This document shows, one piece after another, positions 25,680 to 40,803 of a stretch of 64,000 nt of DNA. A model generated the notes under the pieces. It searched no databases, was not told the origin of the DNA, and worked only from the letters and a program-made list of their open reading frames with translations. Position numbers and translations under genes: made by a program. How positions within the stretch are numbered: the first letter of the stretch is position 1; every line of letters begins with the position of its first letter. The stretch is from contig CAYXAZ010000001.1 in NCBI GenBank assembly GCA_964463085.1, positions 21,906-85,905 on the forward strand, in the 5' to 3' direction. Origin of the DNA: an uncultured Flavobacteriaceae bacterium (lineage in GTDB: Bacteria; Bacteroidota; Bacteroidia; Flavobacteriales; Flavobacteriaceae).

Positions 25680-27110
25680 TTAAAATTCTGCATTTTGCGG
25701 TGTTCTAGGAAACGGTATTACATCTCTAATATTACCCATTCCCGTTGTAAATTGTACCAAACGTTCGAAACCTAAACCGAATCCTGAATGAACTGCTGTT
25801 CCGAATTTTCGTAAATCTAAATACCACCATAGCTCTTTTTCATCAATATCTAAGGCTTTCATTTTTTCTTTCAATACATCATAACGCTCTTCACGTTGTG
25901 AGCCTCCAACAATTTCACCAATTCCCGGAAATAATACATCCATTGCCCTAACAGTTTTACCATCATCATTTAAACGCATATAAAACGCTTTTATGTTAGC
26001 AGGATAGTCAAATAATATTACAGGACATTTAAAATATTTTTCTACCAAATAACGCTCGTGCTCACTTTGCAGGTCTGTTCCCCATTCATCAATAAGATAC
26101 TGGAATTTCTTTTTCTTATTTGGTTTGCAGTTTCTTAAAATATCGATTGCTTCAGTATAAGTAACACGCTTAAAATTATTTTCTACTACAAAATTTAATT
26201 TTTCTAATAAAGACATTTCACTACGTTGTTGTGCAGGTTTGGCACTTTCTTCTTTAGTAAAACGTTCATCTAAAAACGCCAGATCGTCTTTACAGTTTTC
26301 TAATATGTATTTGATAACAGCTTTGATAAAATCTTCAGCTAAATCCATATTGTCATTTAGATCATAAAAGGCCATTTCTGGTTCAATCATCCAAAATTCA
26401 GCCAAATGACGTGTAGTATTTGAATTTTCTGCTCTAAACGTAGGTCCGAAAGTATAGACTTTGCTCAATGCCATAGCATAGGTTTCAGCTTCTAACTGAC
26501 CGGAAACAGTGAGATTGGTTTCTTTGCCAAAAAAATCTTGACTATAATCTACTTCACCATTTTCATTCCTTGGCGGATTTTTTGGATCTAATGTAGAAAC
26601 ACGAAACATCTCTCCTGCACCTTCAGCATCGGAACCGGTAATGATTGGAGCGTGAAAATTATAAAACCCGTTTTCAGTAAAGTATTTATGAACTGCAAAA
26701 GATAATGCAGAGCGTACACGCATAACAGCACTGAAAGTATTGGTTCTAATTCTTAAGTGTGCATTTTCTCGTAAAAACTCAAAACTGTGTTTTTTGGGTT
26801 GAATTGGGTACTCTTCGGCATTTGAATCACCCAAAATTTCTATTTCAGAAACTTGTATTTCAACCGACTGCCCTTTACCTTGACTTTCAACCAATGTTCC
26901 GGTAATAGCAATAGCTGCACCCGTTGTAATACGCCTTAAAAGGTTTTCATCTGTGTTTTCAAAATCAATTACACATTGTATATTATGAATTGTTGAACCA
27001 TCATTTACAGCAATAAAACGATTGGCTCTAAAGGTACGAACCCAGCCTTTTAGGTGTACTTCTTTTGAAAATTGACTAGACTGTAATAATTCAGCAATAC
27101 TTTGTGGCAT
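25680..27110 (-). CDS. asnS: Asparagine--tRNA ligase (start moved to 27110)
   Basis: Motifs [28 protein letters not shown] and GFGLGFERL. Confidence 0.98.
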
Positions 27111-27146
27111 TTCTTCAAAATTTATGAAGTGCAAAGATAGGGATAG

Positions 27147-27181
27147 AATTATGATTTACGAATTATGAATTACGAATTGTT
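27147..27181. repeat. Heptamer tandem repeat (aattatg/aattacg) upstream of the asnS -7 box
   Basis: Five consecutive 7-bp units; TATCTTTG on the - strand at 27132-27139. Confidence 0.7.
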
Positions 27182-27249
27182 TGTGAAAAATAATAACTTT
27201 TATATATTTTTAAAAATTATAATTTTCGCCATTGTTTTTGATAAGTTTA

Positions 27250-27492
27250 TTAGTCTTTAAATAATTCTTTTACATCAATATCTAAAGCTTTGGCTATTTT
27301 AAAAATTGTTTTTAATGTAGTATTTATCTGTGCTCTTTCAATTCTACCTATTTGATTAATAGGAATATTCGAGTCATTTGCCAAATCTTCTTGTGATAAA
27401 CCGCTATCAATTCTAAGTTTTCTAAGACGTTTGCCAAATTGTAATAAAAATATTTCTTCCTCTTTGTATTCCACATTCAAATGTGCTAACAT
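27250..27492 (-). CDS. XRE/Cro-family helix-turn-helix regulator
   Basis: FGKRLRKLRIDSGLSQEDLA...IGRIERAQINTTLKTIFKIAKAL. Confidence 0.93.
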   Translation of the reverse strand: MLAHLNVEYKEEEIFLLQFGKRLRKLRIDSGLSQEDLANDSNIPINQIGRIERAQINTTLKTIFKIAKALDIDVKELFKD

Positions 27493-27509
27493 TTTTAAAA
27501 AAACATAAA

Positions 27510-27545
27510 CACATATATGTGGTATAAGTATTTTTTATATATTTG
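27510..27545 (+). promoter_or_regulatory. Promoter of the lipoprotein gene with a candidate XRE operator
   Basis: Perfect 12-bp palindrome cacatatatgtg (27510-27521) just upstream of TATATTTG (27538-27545), in the divergent intergenic gap. Confidence 0.55.
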
Positions 27546-27699
27546 CCCTAATTAAATTAAACTGAGGGTTGGAGTTCAGTTTTAAACATTCATAAATGCT
27601 CTACTCCATTCTACTTTTTTTAACTACTATGGTTTTTGCTCAATTTTGAATTTGAAACCATATACAATAATTTTTTACTAACTTTAAAGACTAAACACT

Positions 27700-29268
27700 A
27701 TGAAAAATCAACTCAAAAATTATTTAAAAATCTTTGTGCTTCTTTTCGGAGTATCGATATTGCTATGGAATTGTGAAAAAGAAGAAAATATAATTGAGAC
27801 ACAAACAACTACTAGTTTTAAAGCTTATCGTTTTAACAATGATGATATTCCTCAAATTGCTTCTAAAATAGAACAACTTAGTACACAAGAAGTTTTTACT
27901 AAAAGTTCAGATAATAATTCTAAAGCTTATTGGGTTGATGATGTAAATATATTTGGAGCTATTGATTCTGTTGGCAATAAATCTTTTTCTTACAGATTGT
28001 ATTTTAATAATATGCCTAAAAATGTTTTTTATAATATTATCATTACAGAAAGGGTAAGTAATGAGATTTCACCATTTGTAATTGCTTTTGAAATTGAAAA
28101 CGATGAAAAAAAATCGATACGTTATTATGAATTGGAATACTTTTTGGATGCATTAACTGAGCGTGATGAAAAAAGTAAAAGTGGATCTTATTCTAAAAAT
28201 GATCATACTAATGATGGTATATTAGATTTTACTGACTGTGGTGAATTAACAAGTGGCAGTTCTGGTGGTAGTGAGTCTTCAAACACTAGTGGCGGTGGCG
28301 GCAATGGTAATGGAGGCTATGACCCTAACGGGTCTTCTAATTCTGGTAATAGTTATACTTCTTATGGTTCATATACCGTATATTCTTATGGCGGCGGTGG
28401 CGGTGGTGGCGGAGTAACTATAAATACAGGTAATGCTGAAATAGTGGCTGTTGATGCTAAAAGTAATGATGATAGAGTCATTTGCCCGGAAGGTGAAGTG
28501 ATTATTGTAGAGAATAGTTCTTCTGAAGAAATAATTATTACACCTGAATTAGAAGTGGACTATCCTTGTCAATCAGAAAAAATTAAAAATATTTTTGTAG
28601 AAACAGCCCCTTTATCACAATTAATATTAGATATTTTTGATAGTGATAGTAGTGGTTATAACTTGGTTTTTGATGTTGATGAGGCTCTCGAAGATACTGA
28701 TTTTCAGGGAATAACTGGAAACACCTCAGAAAATTCTGAATGGGATTTAGATAAATTAGATATAACAATAGGTTTAAATCCAGATCTTTTAAATAATGGC
28801 ACAGATTTAGCTATAGCTACAACAATAATACATGAATCTGTACATGCGGTTTTGTTATATATGCTTGAAACAGGAAAAATAACAATTGAAAATGCTAATG
28901 GTGATAGAAGTATGACTATGTTAGTAGATTCATATGTTAGGTTTAGAATTATTCAAGAAGAATTTGGTGGGGTTCAACCTACAGATGCTTCAGAAGTTGA
29001 TAACTATATGCATGAATATATGACTGGATTAGTTGAAAGTATTGGGACTTCAATATCTGAATATGGAAATAGTGAGGGATATAATATTGCATTTAGCTAT
29101 TATAAAAAGCTTGCATGGCACGGGCTTGAAGCTAATTTAGAGATGCTTATGTTCGATGATGAAGATATAGATGAAGCTGAAGAAGCTGAATTGCTAGATA
29201 TTAATAATACTTTATTTGATGAATTTGAAAACAGACCTAATGCAAAAGGCACAAAATGTAGTAACTAA
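27700..29268 (+). CDS. Lipoprotein with a Gly/Ser-rich linker and a C-terminal HExxH (zincin-like) domain; candidate polymorphic effector
   Basis: Lipobox LLWN-C followed by acidic EKEEN; poly-Gly linker; IIHESVHA motif; acidic C-terminus ending NAKGTKCSN. Confidence 0.8.
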   Translation: MKNQLKNYLKIFVLLFGVSILLWNCEKEENIIETQTTTSFKAYRFNNDDIPQIASKIEQLSTQEVFTKSSDNNSKAYWVDDVNIFGAIDSVGNKSFSYRLYFNNMPKNVFYNIIITERVSNEISPFVIAFEIENDEKKSIRYYELEYFLDALTERDEKSKSGSYSKNDHTNDGILDFTDCGELTSGSSGGSESSNTSGGGGNGNGGYDPNGSSNSGNSYTSYGSYTVYSYGGGGGGGGVTINTGNAEIVAVDAKSNDDRVICPEGEVIIVENSSSEEIIITPELEVDYPCQSEKIKNIFVETAPLSQLILDIFDSDSSGYNLVFDVDEALEDTDFQGITGNTSENSEWDLDKLDITIGLNPDLLNNGTDLAIATTIIHESVHAVLLYMLETGKITIENANGDRSMTMLVDSYVRFRIIQEEFGGVQPTDASEVDNYMHEYMTGLVESIGTSISEYGNSEGYNIAFSYYKKLAWHGLEANLEMLMFDDEDIDEAEEAELLDINNTLFDEFENRPNAKGTKCSN

Positions 29269-29962
29269 TAAAATAATAATAATTTTTTTATTACTTGGTT
29301 TTATTTCTTTTTACAGCTTTTCACAAAAAAAAGAAATAAAAGCCGAAAGAGATTATATTATTCTAAACAAATCTTTAGAACATTATTTTTATGGAAAACA
29401 TATAAGAGATTCGCTATTCTATAATTCGGAAACCACTAAAAAATATATCGAAAGTAAAGAAGTTAAACGTGCTATCATAAAAAGGGGGAAATTAGATACA
29501 ATTTATATAAAATATATAGCTGATAAAGTTTTATATAAAATGTTTTTAGAGGAAAACGCTAAATGGAAAAGAGAAAAACGTTATAAAAAATTCTCTAATG
29601 ATTTAGAAATTATATTTTCCGATGATGAAGTAAAGTATTATTTAAATCAACTAGAGAGTAATCATTATTTATGGAATGAAGATAAAATTGATTTTAAAGA
29701 TCGTGTTTTTGTTGTGAAAAAATTTAATTACACTAGGGAAGAGGCTAAATTAATGGGAATTGTAGAAAAAGATCAGCTTGGGCGTACTCTAATTCAAAGA
29801 ACAAATCGTTATTTTACATTTTCAAAACCTATCTATTCTAAAAATAATAATACTGCTTTAATTGCTTATAGTTATAATGCAAATTTTATTTTATACATTT
29901 ATGAGAAAGTTAATAAAAAATGGGTGTTTAAACTTGTGCTAAGCAAAAGTTATTTTATTTAA
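29240..29962 (+). CDS. Exported partner (candidate immunity) protein overlapping the effector 3' end (start moved to 29240)
   Basis: Hydrophobic signal segment; the ATG in aATGcaaaagg is conserved in the paralogue at 30243; basic protein. Confidence 0.75.
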   Translation: MQKAQNVVTNKIIIIFLLLGFISFYSFSQKKEIKAERDYIILNKSLEHYFYGKHIRDSLFYNSETTKKYIESKEVKRAIIKRGKLDTIYIKYIADKVLYKMFLEENAKWKREKRYKKFSNDLEIIFSDDEVKYYLNQLESNHYLWNEDKIDFKDRVFVVKKFNYTREEAKLMGIVEKDQLGRTLIQRTNRYFTFSKPIYSKNNNTALIAYSYNANFILYIYEKVNKKWVFKLVLSKSYFI

Positions 29963-29972
29963 AATTTTACAG

Positions 29973-30000
29973 AAAGGAAGCTTTAATAAAGCTTCCTTTT
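29973..30000. terminator. Intrinsic terminator after the partner gene
   Basis: aaaggaagcttt-aat-aaagcttcctttt. Confidence 0.8.
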
Positions 30001-30031
30001 AATTTGTTTTTTTATAATTCGTTCTATATTA

Positions 30032-30090
30032 TTATTCAATTAGCCTCATCAAATACTGTCCGTACCCTATTTTTATAAAGGTTGTGCAAC
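30032..30090 (-). pseudogene. Duplicated 3' tail of rfbA
   Basis: 52 of 60 positions identical to 30990-31049 by manual alignment; translates VAQPL-KIGYGQYLMRLIE* vs [19 protein letters not shown]. Confidence 0.9.
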
Positions 30091-30098
30091 TTTTTAAC

Positions 30099-30274
30099 TA
30101 TTATAAAAATTAGCTTGGTTAGGTCTTAAAGATAGTTTAGAATTGCTTCTAGTTGATGATAGTGATGGATTTACTCAAGAAGACCAAGCTGAAGTAGATG
30201 CTATTAATACGGTTATAGAAGATGAATTTTTAAATAGAAACAATGCAAAAGGTGAAAAGTGTACAAATAATTAA
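30099..30274 (+). pseudogene. Orphan C-terminal fragment homologous to the 27700-29268 lipoprotein
   Basis: YYK(fs)LAWLGLKDSLELLLVDD...DEFLNRNNAKGEKCTNN* aligns with YYKKLAWHGLEANLEMLMFDD...DEFENRPNAKGTKCSN*; no start codon or N-terminal part. Confidence 0.88.
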
Positions 30275-30984
30275 AAAAGAACTGGTTGTTCTTATATTAA
30301 TTCTATTCTCATTTTATGGGTTTACTCAAAAAAGAGAAATAAAATCAAATGATGATTACACGATTCTTAATAATGCAATAGAAAAGATATTTTATAGCAA
30401 GAAAATTTAGTGATTCACTATTTTTTAATTCAGTGCTATACAAAGAAAATCTCAATCATAAAAAAATTAAAAGGGATATAAAAAGAAAAAAAAAGAGATA
30501 CACTATATATAAAAACTATAGCTGATAAAATCATATATAAACAATTTTTAAAAGATGATGCGAGATGGAAAAAAACAAATATTATAAAAAATACTTGACA
30601 GAATTAAATAATATTTTTTCTATAGATGAAGTAGTAAATTATAATAAACAACTCGAAAGCAATTTTTATTTGTGGGATAAAAGTAAAATCAATTTTAAAG
30701 ATCGCATTTTTATAAATAATAAAATACAATTTACACGAGATGAAATTAAAAACTTATCTAAAGAAAAAAAGAAATTAGAACTTAGAAAAATATATGACTT
30801 AGGAAAGAAATTGAATTTATATATTTTTTCTAAACCAATATATTCTATTAATAATAAATACGTTTTAATAGCTTATGAAAGAGAAGGAACACGTATTTTA
30901 AATATATTTGAAAGAATTGACAATAACTGGAAGTTCAAATATTCTTTAAATAATAATATGTTTGTTGATAGAATAATACCTTAA
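30243..30984 (+). pseudogene. Frameshifted paralogue of the 29240-29962 partner protein (includes ORF 30565-30984)
   Basis: Collinear similarity across three frames; shifts near 30406-30408 (T run), 30486-30494 (A9) and 30569-30575 (A7). Confidence 0.85.
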
Positions 30985-30989
30985 CATGT

Positions 30990-31850
30990 TTATTTAATTA
31001 GCCCCATCAAATATTGTCCATAACCACTTTTTAATAAAGGTTGTGCAACCTCTTTGAGTTGTTGGGCGGAAATAAATCCTTTATGGTAGGCAACTTCTTC
31101 AATACAGCCAATTTTTAAGCCTTGGCGTTCTTCTATTACTTGTACATATTGTTGCGCTTGCATTAACGATTGAAATGTACCGGTATCTAACCAGGCTGTA
31201 CCACGACTTAATACACCAACTTTTAATTTACCTTGCTGTAAGTAGACATTATTTACATCTGTAATTTCATATTCCCCTCTTGCTGATGGTTTAAGGTTTT
31301 TGGCAATTTCAACAACGCTATTATCATAAAAATAAATACCCGGAACTGCATAATTTGATTTGGGATGTTGAGGTTTTTCTTCAATAGAAATGGCTTTATT
31401 AGTATCATCAAATTCTACAACTCCATAGCGTTCAGGATCTGTTACGTGATAGGCAAAAACGGTACCACCATTTGGTTTTGAAGCTTCAACCAATAATTTT
31501 TCAAATCCGGTTCCATAAAAAATATTATCGCCTAAAATTAAAGCCACATCATCATTACCAATAAACTCTTCGCCTATAACAAAAGCTTGTGCTAATCCGT
31601 TAGGAATTTCTTGTACAGCATATTGAAAATTGCATCCTAATCGTTTTCCATCGCCTAATAAACGTTCAAATAAAGGTAGGTCATGAGGAGTGGAAATGAT
31701 CAAAATGTCTTTGATATTCGCTAACATTAAGGCTGATAGCGGATAATAGATCATCGGTTTATCATAAATTGGCATTAATTGTTTACTTATAGCCAATGTT
31801 AATGGATGTAATCTGGTTCCGCTGCCTCCAGCTAGTATAATTCCTTTCAT
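30990..31850 (-). CDS. rfbA: Glucose-1-phosphate thymidylyltransferase
   Basis: [18 protein letters not shown]; ARGEYEITD; WLDTGT. Confidence 0.98.
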
Positions 31851-39055: not shown

Positions 39056-39886
39056 ATGAAAAAAATACTAGTTCCAATCGATTTTTCTGATGAGGCTAAA
39101 TACGCTTGTAAAGTAGCTGCAACTATTGCTAAAAAAACAAACAGTGAAATTATATTACTGCATATGTTAGATATCCCTACAGAAGCAATAGACCCTATTG
39201 AGTCTAATAATCTTCGGGGTGGTGCACAAGCAATCTTTATTATGAAAGCAATTCATAAAAAATTTGAAAAAATTAAAGCTTTACCATTTTTTGATGGGAT
39301 TAAAGTTACTGAAGATGTAAAATTTCATAAAGCTTTTGAAGGTGTTATTGAAGAAAGTAAAAAACACAATGTTGACTTAGTTGTGATGGGTTCGCAAGGA
39401 GCAACAGGTTTAAAGGAAATGTTGGTAGGTTCTAATACCGAAAAAGTAGTTAGGCATTCTGATATACCGGTTTTAGTTATTAAGCAAGATGTTGATAATT
39501 TTGGTATTGATACTATAGTTTTTGCTTCTGATTTTAGCGATAAAAGTAAAAAATCATTTCAAAACGTATTGGATTTCGCAACTATATTTAATGCTAAATT
39601 ACATTTGTTATTTATCAATACTGTTCACAATTTTGAGCCAACTAAAAAATCTAAAAGTAAGCTTAAAGATTTTATTTCAGATTTTGATATTAAGGACTAT
39701 ACTCTAAATATTTATAATGATACTACTATTGAAGAAGGGATTTTAAACTTCGGAAAAGAAATTGATACTGATATTATTGCTATAAATACACACGGTAGAA
39801 GTGGTTTGTCACAACTGTTTAGCGAAAGTATTAGTAAAGAATTGGCAAACCATGCTTTAAGACCTGTCATTACTTTTAAAATTTAA
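39056..39886 (+). CDS. Universal stress protein (two USP domains), copy 1
   Basis: MKKILVPIDFS; DLVVMGSQG..G...VGSNTEKVVR. Confidence 0.95.
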   Translation: MKKILVPIDFSDEAKYACKVAATIAKKTNSEIILLHMLDIPTEAIDPIESNNLRGGAQAIFIMKAIHKKFEKIKALPFFDGIKVTEDVKFHKAFEGVIEESKKHNVDLVVMGSQGATGLKEMLVGSNTEKVVRHSDIPVLVIKQDVDNFGIDTIVFASDFSDKSKKSFQNVLDFATIFNAKLHLLFINTVHNFEPTKKSKSKLKDFISDFDIKDYTLNIYNDTTIEEGILNFGKEIDTDIIAINTHGRSGLSQLFSESISKELANHALRPVITFKI

Positions 39887-39892
39887 CTTATT

Positions 39893-39927
39893 AAAAAAGG
39901 GCTCTTAAGTTTAAGAATCCTTTTTTT
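39893..39927. terminator. Intrinsic terminator between the USP copies
   Basis: aaaaaagggctcttaa / ttaagaatcctttttt. Confidence 0.7.
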
Positions 39928-39972
39928 CAGTAGAAAAACTTATCTTTATAAAATAATTAAATTTTTATAACC

Positions 39973-40803
39973 ATGAAAAAAATATTAGTTCCTGTTGATT
40001 TTTCTAAACAAGCAGAGCATGCATGTAAAGTAGCTGCAACTATTGCTAAAAAAACAAACAGTGAAATTATATTATTGCACATGTTAGATATTCCTTCAAC
40101 GTCTATAGATCCTGCTGGCGGAGGTAACCTTCAAGGAGGTGCCCAAAGTATTTATTATTTAAAGGGAATTCATAAAGAATTTGAAAAATTTAAAGCCTTC
40201 CCGTTTTTTGAAGGACTTACTATTATTGAAACGGTACGTTTTCACAAAGCGTTTGATGGGGTTATTGAAGAGAGTAAAAAAAATGATGTTGATTTGATTG
40301 TAATGGGCTCACAAGGGGCAACAGGTTTAAAGGAAATGTTAGTAGGCTCAAATACCGAAAAAGTGGTTAGACATTCTCACATTCCGGTTTTAGTCATCAA
40401 ACAAAATATTGAAAATTTTGAATTTAATGAGATGATCTTTGCTTCAGATTTTGGTATAGAAAGTAAGGCGAACTTCCAAAAAGTATTAGATTTCACAGCT
40501 GTTTTTAATGTAAAATTACATTTATTATTTATCAATACTATGCATAATTTTGAATCGACGAAAGTGTCTAAAGACAGACTTGAAAATTATGTTTCAAGTT
40601 TTGATATTAAAGATCATACCATAAATATTTACAATGATACAACTATTGAAGAAGGCATTTTAAATTTCGGCAAACAGATCAATGCTGATGTAATTGGTAT
40701 TTACACCCACGGTAGGAGTGGTTTATCACAATTATTTAATGAAAGTATAAGTAAAGAATTAGCGAATCATGCACTAAGACCAGTGATTACTTTTAAGGTT
40801 TAA
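39973..40803 (+). CDS. Universal stress protein, copy 2 (tandem paralogue)
   Basis: Same 276-aa length and motifs as copy 1. Confidence 0.95.
   Translation: MKKILVPVDFSKQAEHACKVAATIAKKTNSEIILLHMLDIPSTSIDPAGGGNLQGGAQSIYYLKGIHKEFEKFKAFPFFEGLTIIETVRFHKAFDGVIEESKKNDVDLIVMGSQGATGLKEMLVGSNTEKVVRHSHIPVLVIKQNIENFEFNEMIFASDFGIESKANFQKVLDFTAVFNVKLHLLFINTMHNFESTKVSKDRLENYVSSFDIKDHTINIYNDTTIEEGILNFGKQINADVIGIYTHGRSGLSQLFNESISKELANHALRPVITFKV

Follow-up and report, generated by a model that had tools for sequence, protein, structure and literature searches.

A probable polymorphic toxin/immunity module on a surface-lipoprotein scaffold in an uncultured member of the Flavobacteriaceae

Polymorphic toxins are classified by the route through which they leave the cell (type V, type VI and type VII secretion systems, abbreviated T5SS, T6SS and T7SS, Rhs, and others), and lipid-anchored members have been studied experimentally only in myxobacteria. 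The SitA proteins of Myxococcus are lipobox-anchored toxins that depend on TraAB outer-membrane exchange and combine family-defining escort domains with modular C-terminal nucleases (PMC5562445, PMC8546572). Constant N-terminal domains restricted to particular lineages have also been described, namely MafB-N of Neisseria, the Microscilla domain and the lipobox-anchored APD1 and APD2 of Amoebophilus, and the combination of a signal peptide or lipobox with a conserved N-domain and a polymorphic C-terminus was read as a means of tethering toxins to the cell surface (Zhang et al., 2012, PMC3482391). Here, we describe a locus in a 64,000-nucleotide stretch of contig CAYXAZ010000001.1 from an uncultured Flavobacteriaceae bacterium (hereafter the window), which very probably is a polymorphic toxin/immunity module carried on a Bacteroidota surface-lipoprotein scaffold. 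A search of the literature on this scaffold family, on DUF6973, on lipoprotein toxins of Bacteroidota and on polymorphic toxins of Tenacibaculum found no description of the family. A preliminary description of the same DNA, made from the letters alone, had listed six elements: a divergent XRE regulator, a surface lipoprotein with a poly-Gly linker and a C-terminal HExxH domain, an overlapping gene for an exported partner, a terminator, a headless homologue of the last ~58 effector codons and a frameshifted paralogue of the partner. All six are present where it placed them or close by, each far beyond chance (Table 1).

The assignment draws on the architecture of polymorphic toxins, that is, a constant N-terminal region combined with unrelated C-terminal tips, which the alignments point to here together with a co-varying downstream partner. 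Orphan cassettes likewise lie downstream, at 30093-30984 of the window, twice in locus L021, once in L006 and, in the form of an intact partner, in L025 (loci and proteins of relatives are cited by our L and P handles). An indexed protein search returned 12 homologues of the whole effector, many of them covering about half of the query, and a pattern scan of species-representative genomes recovered 15 loci in Tenacibaculum, Polaribacter and other Flavobacteriaceae, three of these in a single Tenacibaculum genome. The homologues share the lipobox, the N-domain and the Gly-rich linker and diverge after the motif RVICPEGE(V/I)IIVEN; in P0002, P0003, P0006 and P0007 the junction motif is kept and unrelated tips follow it. 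At least six tip types are found on the scaffold marked by LLLWNCEKE: HExxH-A, HExxH-B (AHEVIHAE), Tae4, DUF6973, an 'NCSDFG' type and others. Pfam recognises the DUF6973 tip at E ~1e-16 and the Tae4 tips of L016 and L021 at E=6e-25 and 4e-21, respectively; the L021 tip can also be aligned to 4HFK, a solved structure of Tae4, and retains the catalytic Cys and His. Within the family Tae4 is limited to these two loci, and Pfam detects no such domain in the window effector itself. L015 and L016, which come from the same genome, share their first ~330 amino acids (aa) and end in DUF6973 and Tae4, respectively.

The genes that follow the effectors sort by tip. A small gene stands after the effector, or overlaps its stop codon, in nearly all loci, and an all-against-all BLAST comparison showed that the partner family tracks the tip family. 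HExxH-A tips (window, L002 and L003) are accompanied by a family of 240-254 aa partners (38-54% identity), the tips of L023 and L024 by 183- and 178-aa partners (47% identity) and DUF6973 tips by partners of 130 and 110 aa. The L013-type tip has a 231-aa lipoprotein partner, a 220-aa relative of which lies in L006 behind an orphan 58-aa tip, and an unrelated 158-aa lipoprotein comes after the P0002 tip. With other tips, lipoproteins devoid of the export motif take the place of the partner. Comparison of the Tae4-associated partner with the PDB gave no similarity to Tai4, and Pfam scans of ten partners of relatives returned no known immunity family, DUF6705 (in the L008 partner) being the only family at threshold.

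Arrays of displaced cassettes are present among the relatives as well. Judged by its sequence layout, L021 (3292-8310) is the cleanest array of the set and of textbook form: a Tae4 effector and its lipoprotein partner are followed by two orphan cassettes (310 and 300 aa), each of which opens with a stretch of 50-70 aa resembling the effector's pre-toxin region (60-64% identity) and continues into an HExxH tip and then its own exported partner. L006 contains one orphan tip with a partner. Other arrangements were noted in passing: L008 (6514-8580) holds three tandem copies of a DUF6705-like partner, one of them across an assembly gap; L020 (5980-10568) encodes two full-length effectors in tandem, 70% identical and with different tips; and in L011 (4305-11520) an effector is interrupted by transposase-like open reading frames (ORFs), after which an orphan cassette follows.

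The window locus is itself a mosaic. Over positions 27254-28515 (the XRE gene, the leader and the effector's constant part), the DNA is ~82% identical to L001, and over positions 28505-29962 (tip and partner) it is ~70% identical to L003, whose N-domain belongs to a different subfamily from that of the window. The breakpoint falls at nt 28505-28515, on the codons of ...IIVEN (aa 269-272), and by these alignments the effector is a recombinant whose two parts meet in the conserved junction motif. The XRE stop codon (~27247-27254) is exactly where the homology to L001 sets in, and the flanking genes differ; the module therefore moves between genomic sites. The window XRE protein shares 85% aa identity with the one preceding the related effector in L001, further XRE genes lie 5' of the effectors in L002, L006 and L010, and none is present in the syntenic locus L025; in some relatives, XRE is a component of the transferable module. 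The preliminary description had proposed that the modules are exchangeable and had suggested a search for N-terminal homologues with variable C-termini and cognate partners. The unrelated tips, each with its own partner family, the orphan cassettes of relatives and the breakpoint at the junction bear out this proposal.

A second genome adds a view of the insertion site. L025 (GCA_054000455.1, JBMXTP010000189.1; 2673-5753), which was reached via the partner homologue P0162, is syntenic with the window in the order rpoN-asnS-[variable]-rfbA-MMPL-infB, and its flanks are 85-87% identical to those of the window (85.6% DNA identity for asnS). Its variable segment encodes a 543-aa effector with an HExxH-B tip and a 154-aa partner and, adjoining rfbA, an intact stand-alone partner of the window type. 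The asnS–rfbA site is, on this comparison, hypervariable between related genomes, and an intact partner retained without its toxin would fit what is expected of an immunity gene.

The tip of the window effector carries the motif HESVH (aa 378-382, nt 28831-28845), a third invariant His, His438 (29011-29013), 56 residues past HExxH, and a Cys290/Cys520 pair (28567-28569 and 29257-29259), the protein ending in ...KCSN. In an alignment of 11 tips (A2), H-E-x-x-H, the C-terminal Cys and a His and a Met located 56-59 residues downstream are invariant, and the Cys at the start of the domain is nearly so (>=90%). The four residues H, E, H and H are also invariant among the top 143 representatives of a larger search, in which the terminal Cys is conserved in >=90% and a Cys lies within the last five residues in 141 of 143. 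As a separate observation on tip ends, most HExxH and 'NCSDFG' tips finish with Cys-x-(N/Q/P) within their last 1-4 residues, and this terminal Cys pairs with another where the tip begins, a feature that Tae4 and DUF6973 tips do not have.

An AlphaFold model of the tip computed with alignment A2 reached a predicted local distance difference test score (pLDDT) of 90.2 and a predicted template modelling score (pTM) of 0.90, and consists of three strands, the HExxH helix and a helical bundle. Foldseek found no structure in the PDB matching this model at E<=0.001, the best zincin match being 3e11 with a probability of 0.25. Against PDB sequences, the tip profile gave no match below E=0.17, Spartan scoring E=0.45 in the region of the HExxH helix, and the best Pfam hit, SprT-like, scored 17.5 bits and remained below the cut-off of 25.6 bits. 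The HExxH tip is an unannotated domain, to which neither a Pfam family above threshold nor a fold in the PDB corresponds. It is also widespread: an exhaustive HMMER search of 1.84 billion cluster representatives recovered 3,130 tip-containing representatives at E<=1e-3 and 1,399 at E<=1e-10, a family that the word-indexed homologue search had under-reported with 3 matches. Among the matches, the tip almost always forms the very C-terminal end of a 450-650-aa protein. A complete lipoprotein signal is present in 81 of the top 143 representatives, and many of the others are 5'-truncated or start at the pre-toxin junction, resembling orphan cassettes. Ten representatives were checked for names, and two had one, 'hypothetical protein' in Winogradskyella and in Tenacibaculum finnmarkense. 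On P0095 (705 aa) an HExxH-B tip and the pre-toxin junction follow a long N-terminus that is not of lipoprotein type and has an ordinary signal peptide, which implies that this tip has been shuffled onto at least one other scaffold. We regard the HExxH tip as a putative toxic zinc peptidase.

The partner gene overlaps the effector, as had been noted earlier, and its start can now be refined. All homologues of the partner begin with MQK, which places the start at ATG 29240 and gives a 29-nt overlap with the 3' end of the effector gene; this ATG sits within the conserved effector codons for ...NAKGTKCSN. In the HExxH-A group, the partner start codon is found inside conserved NAKGxKC codons. The partner N-terminus resembles a Sec signal, with an n-region, a 16-residue hydrophobic core and the sequence ...FYSFS|QK. 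Eleven homologues (43-80% identity) have 36 invariant residues in common, and homologues stand directly after the HExxH-A tip in L002, L003 and the KDC47 contig. The model of the partner (pLDDT 79.5) shows a helical N-terminal half followed by a β-sheet C-terminal half; Pfam assigned no family to the protein and Foldseek found no PDB structure at E<=0.001. Its position and its co-variation with the tip make it a putative antagonist that would neutralise the tip.

The N-terminal half of the effector may indicate how the protein reaches the cell surface. It reads MKNQLKNYLKIFVLLFGVSILLWN-C25-EKEEN, with the codon of Cys25 at 27772-27774, and the lipobox LLLWNCEKE is near-invariant among the homologues in alignment A1. 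Bacteroidota use a lipoprotein surface-export signal (LES), for which the optimal form is C-X-K-(D/E)2-X (Lauber et al., 2016, PMC5080379). The C-E-K-E-E-N of the effector fits this motif, and among 81 lipoprotein relatives the position +3 after the lipid-anchor Cys is Lys in 37 and the position +4 Asp or Glu in 65. The linker (60 aa) consists to 80% of Gly, Ser, Asn and Thr and contains GGGGGGGG, a run of eight consecutive Gly; similar Gly-rich linkers are present in nearly all homologues. The N-domain, which measures ~150 aa across homologues and splits into several subfamilies, has no match in Pfam or NCBIfam. Scans of the effector with the same two collections detected no signature of T6SS, contact-dependent inhibition (CDI) or the type IX secretion system (T9SS) C-terminal domain (CTD), in agreement with the preliminary description, and none of Rhs either. 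Run on the effector, the partner and the orphan pieces, the two collections returned no more than the HTH families of XRE and the SprT-like match below threshold.

We envisage that Sec would export the effector, which would then be lipidated and, through its CEKEE export signal, flipped to the cell surface. While still associated with the outer membrane, it may be transferred to neighbours by contact or on outer-membrane vesicles, and in the target cell its tip, a predicted disulfide-closed zinc metallopeptidase-like enzyme, would act in the periplasm or envelope. The co-translated periplasmic partner, in turn, would bind and block the tip in producer and kin. The periplasm or envelope of the target cell is the likely site of action because the partners are exported, the tip is Cys-closed and Tae4 acts on peptidoglycan.

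How the toxin travels is a question on which delivery by outer-membrane vesicles or as a released protein may stand equally with contact-dependent transfer. A toxin/immunity pair with contact-independent delivery could use vesicles, or the tip could be clipped off at the linker and diffuse in the manner of a bacteriocin, entering via an outer-membrane receptor recognised by the N-domain or the tip. This is a real possibility, if on balance a somewhat improbable one. The LES motif is present, LES-type surface lipoproteins of Bacteroides are preferentially packed into vesicles, the long flexible linker is a candidate cleavage site, and no dedicated secretion or transfer genes adjoin the module in the loci examined. 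However, neither a lipid anchor nor a conserved N-domain is needed by a freely diffusing bacteriocin, and the sequence does not separate this route from contact-dependent transfer.

The remnants between the terminator and rfbA offer a record of earlier exchange. DNA homology of the orphan tip starts at 30093, and a tblastn comparison of 29963-31060 placed its in-frame part at 30107-30271 (55 codons). Identity is 52% to aa 470-522 of the window effector (E=2e-12) and reaches 67% for the P0014 C-terminus (E=1e-22), with a further match to P0005 (E=2e-18); it has no start codon or N-terminal part, and in-frame stops lie just upstream. The ORF map shows three short pieces in the interval 30143-30984. 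The orphan partner comprises frame segments at 30243-30407, ~30382-30490, 30491-30574 and 30565-30984, which lie in three frames. At least three frameshifts separate them, near 30385-30410, 30485-30495 and 30565-30580, all at A/T runs. Together the segments match intact partners from end to end, with identities of 38-56% (56% for P0162, E=6e-77; 48% for P0168, E=1e-61). The orphan pair is closest to the L002 pair (69% in DNA, 75% at the tip end, 54% for the partner). The orphan is not a different toxin: it belongs to the same tip family, as an allele that has been displaced.

Local alignment further revealed a diverged tandem repeat of ~1,001 nt (29092-30095 and 30093-31054). The first unit ends in a 64-nt copy of the 3' end of rfbA (30032-30095), which is 84.6% identical to 30990-31054 and, in reverse complement, still reads ..VAQPL../..GYGQYLMRLIE*. 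The duplicated tip and partner are 70% and 67% identical, respectively, compared to 84.6% for the rfbA fragment (binomial p ~0.001). Given that the fragment is less diverged than the duplicated coding parts, we favour import of a foreign allele over duplication in place; a recent in-place duplication is disfavoured because all parts would be equally diverged. A purely local tandem duplication was considered as the origin of the orphan and is disfavoured by the same comparison (84.6% for the rfbA fragment, 67% for the coding duplicate). We infer that the fragment is a scar marking the right end of the incoming cassette. A related strain may have donated a block reaching from upstream of the effector through the first ~64 nt at the 3' end of the donor's rfbA. 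An illegitimate join at a TTT microhomology, within the tip of the resident gene and at the point that corresponds to nt 29092, would have beheaded the old toxin. The resident immunity gene would have been retained and would since have decayed. The headless tip and the frameshifted partner are the previous resident pair.

It is unlikely, although not without arguments, that the orphan partner is no pseudogene and works as a second immunity gene, its frameshifts being homopolymer assembly errors. All three shifts fall in A/T runs, the segments are free of stops and keep the family-invariant motifs (ADK..Y, FSKPIYS, W), and the syntenic genome L025 has an intact orphan partner at the equivalent place. 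Yet assembly errors would hardly be expected to give three independent shifts within 200 nt, conservation is poor in the segment 30410-30490 as well, and the orphan-partner sequence alone is not decisive, no start codon or ribosome-binding context being lost.

Several points weigh against reading the locus as a toxin/immunity module on a surface lipoprotein. Toxicity, partner binding and delivery are what we infer, and surface exposure of the effector is predicted from its motif only. In Pfam and in Foldseek comparison with the PDB the tip matches no characterised toxin or peptidase, and the partner matches no known immunity family or fold. Co-divergence of tip and partner within HExxH-A is a trend only (r=0.74, n=6 pairs, p=0.09), and the frameshifts of the orphan partner, all at A/T runs, could partly be assembly errors.

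A rival explanation is an ordinary surface-anchored metalloprotease that serves nutrition, adhesion or damage to host tissue, with the partner as a dedicated periplasmic chaperone or inhibitor and the remnant as a decayed local tandem duplication that plays no part in competition. HExxH lipoproteins on the surface of Bacteroidota are commonly degradative enzymes, some carriers of the family are fish pathogens, e.g. Tenacibaculum finnmarkense, and the 1,001-nt repeat is arranged like a tandem duplication. We consider this explanation very improbable. The same scaffold also bears unrelated tips and Tae4, a peptidoglycan amidase with no known role other than that of an antibacterial effector; the partners follow the tip and not the scaffold; orphan arrays and the intact stand-alone partner of L025 suit immunity rather than chaperoning; and the rfbA fragment is far less diverged than the coding duplicate, favouring import of a foreign allele. 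Effectors aimed at eukaryotic cells (algal, protist or animal hosts) in the manner of APD1 and APD2, with the partner as an export chaperone, are least probable of all, for even though Bacteroidetes lipobox proteins with a constant N- and a polymorphic C-terminus have been assigned to a eukaryotic host (Zhang et al., 2012, PMC3482391) and the carriers are marine and many of them host-associated, Tae4 tips act on bacterial peptidoglycan, and linked, tip-specific exported partners together with orphan partners are hallmarks of antibacterial self-protection.

The features of the polymorphic toxin/immunity module and its flanks are collected in Table 1.

Table 1. Features of the effector locus and its flanking genes, in positions of the window.
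Feature	Position	Strand	Basis
asnS-type class II aminoacyl-tRNA synthetase, left flank	25680-27134	(-)	ORF map; L025 counterpart PF01336 + PF00152
XRE/HTH_3 regulator, 80 aa, divergent	27250-27492	(-)	Pfam HTH_3, E=2.8e-13
TAnnTTTG promoter-like box and conserved leader, ~150 nt	27538-27699	(+)	comparison of window, L001, L025, L006
Effector ORF, 522 aa	27700-29268	(+)	ORF map
Signal peptide, lipobox LLWN-C25, export signal C-E-K-E-E-N	27700-27789	(+)	alignment A1; LES motif
N-terminal 'constant' domain, aa 31-185, fold unassigned	27790-28254	(+)	alignment over 13 homologues, 20-89% identity
Gly/Ser/Asn-rich low-complexity linker, aa 186-245	28255-28434	(+)	composition
Junction motif RVICPEGEVIIVEN, aa 259-272	28474-28515	(+)	mosaic breakpoint, homologue divergence
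C-terminal tip, aa 276-522, zincin-like HExxH domain	28525-29268	(+)	alignment, AlphaFold, HMM (hidden Markov model) search
Cognate partner (presumed immunity protein), 240 aa	29240-29962	(+)	ORF open from 29216 (248 aa)
Intrinsic terminator hairpin	29972-30000	(+)	13-bp stem, 3-nt loop, then T-run AATTTGTTTT
Decayed fragment, last ~21 codons of rfbA	30032-30095	(-)	repeat search, 84.6% vs 30990-31054
Orphan effector tip, last ~58 codons	30093-30274	(+)	tblastn
Orphan partner paralogue, frameshifted	30243-30984	(+)	tblastn, segments in three frames
rfbA (glucose-1-phosphate thymidylyltransferase), right flank, convergent	30990-31850	(-)	ORF map; L025 counterpart PF00483 NTP_transferase

The region between the XRE gene and the effector is conserved in its own right. 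Leaders are found at 27538-27699 of the window, 5846-6003 of L001, 2528-2675 of L025 and 4845-5003 of L006, although the effectors of these loci differ in N-domain and tip. In the window, the leader follows a promoter-like TAnnTTTG box at 27538-27545, which we take to be the Bacteroidota -7 box, and contains AAACTGAGGGTTGGAGTTCAG at 27559-27579 and TATGGTTTTTGCTC at 27628-27641; the elements shared across the loci are AAACTGAGGGT[TA]GGAGTTCAG and TATGGTTTTTGCTC...GAAACCAT. RNAalifold predicted two stems with almost no covariation, and an Rfam scan of 27000-31100, which covers the leader, gave no credible match. The leader could be a shared regulatory leader or the operator region of XRE. Elsewhere in the window, two adjacent ORFs of 276 aa (39056-39886 and 39973-40803) have near-identical N-termini, MKKILVP[IV]DFS..A.[YH]ACKVAATIAKKTNSEIILLHMLDIP, and seem to be tandem duplicates of one gene; by eye, we presume that this pair (39056-40803) is universal-stress-protein-like.

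What the locus indicates is a large family of toxins borne on lipoproteins in marine Flavobacteriaceae, which play a major part in the degradation of algal polymers and count fish pathogens among them. Annotation is lacking for the N-domain, for the main warhead (HExxH, ~3,130 representatives) and for the partners, all of which are new in this sense. We tentatively suggest, with a little less than even confidence, that these loci may represent an unrecognised form of toxin delivery in marine Flavobacteriaceae and probably in other Bacteroidota, in which LES surface lipoproteins would be passed on by outer-membrane transfer (contact-dependent lipoprotein transfer or vesicle fusion) without T6SS, T5SS or T9SS, N-domain subfamilies would serve as receptor or entry modules, and the zincin-like superfamily, with its ~3,000 cluster representatives, would provide the dominant warhead acting in the periplasm. 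If true, this would add a delivery class to interbacterial antagonism in Bacteroidota and a new enzyme family with an envelope target, and the asnS–rfbA site could provide markers of strain-level competition and kin discrimination for marine particle and biofilm communities.

Compared to the systems already described, the effector differs from T9SS cargo: Pfam and NCBIfam detect no CTD, and the C-terminus of the effector is the toxin domain itself. Similar to CDI and Rhs systems, tips are exchanged at a short junction (here IIVEN or GEVDFxxxII, there VENN or PxxxxDPxGL), and displaced orphan tips keep upstream homology and are followed by immunity genes. In contrast to CDI, however, Pfam and NCBIfam find no TPS domain, FHA repeats or PT-VENN in the effector or its relatives, there is no CdiB-like neighbour, and the resemblance is restricted to the short 'VEN'. 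Rhs proteins differ in their YD/RHS repeats, none of which is found here by Pfam, and the present effector is only ~500 aa long and lipid-anchored.

Periplasm-acting T6SS effectors, among them the amidase of the Tae4/Tai4 pairs, provide a parallel at the level of the tip. VgrG2b of Pseudomonas aeruginosa carries a metallopeptidase domain that acts in the periplasm and has a periplasmic immunity protein. Family members of the present scaffold bear genuine Tae4, and the HExxH tip of the window, together with its periplasmic partner, would follow the same logic. A Sec signal peptide and lipobox are, however, incompatible with loading from the cytoplasm, no T6SS genes lie adjacent at the loci examined, and the partners are unrelated to Tai4.

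With MafB-N, Microscilla and APD proteins the family shares a signal peptide (in APD1 and APD2 also a lipobox), a lineage-specific N-domain and polymorphic C-terminal domains. The window effector nevertheless has no Pfam match to those N-domains, MafB itself is not a lipoprotein, and APD proteins are thought to target the eukaryotic host and come without classical immunity pairs; the present family, by contrast, has cognate partners and orphan arrays.

SitA/SitI provides an architectural match, with which the family has in common a lipobox, a conserved N-domain, a disordered region, a polymorphic C-terminal toxin, an immunity gene directly downstream and the absence of a classical secretion-system tag. 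This match is an analogy only: SitA belongs to another phylum, the family differs from it in every one of its domains, and no sequence similarity surfaced in the searches made, which included no SitA sequences or models. Furthermore, SitA resides on the inner leaflet of the outer membrane, delivers nucleases that act in the cytoplasm and is paired with immunity proteins that are not exported, whereas the family described here would join a surface-export signal to envelope-acting tips (Tae4, zincin-like) and to partners that are Sec-exported or lipoproteins themselves.

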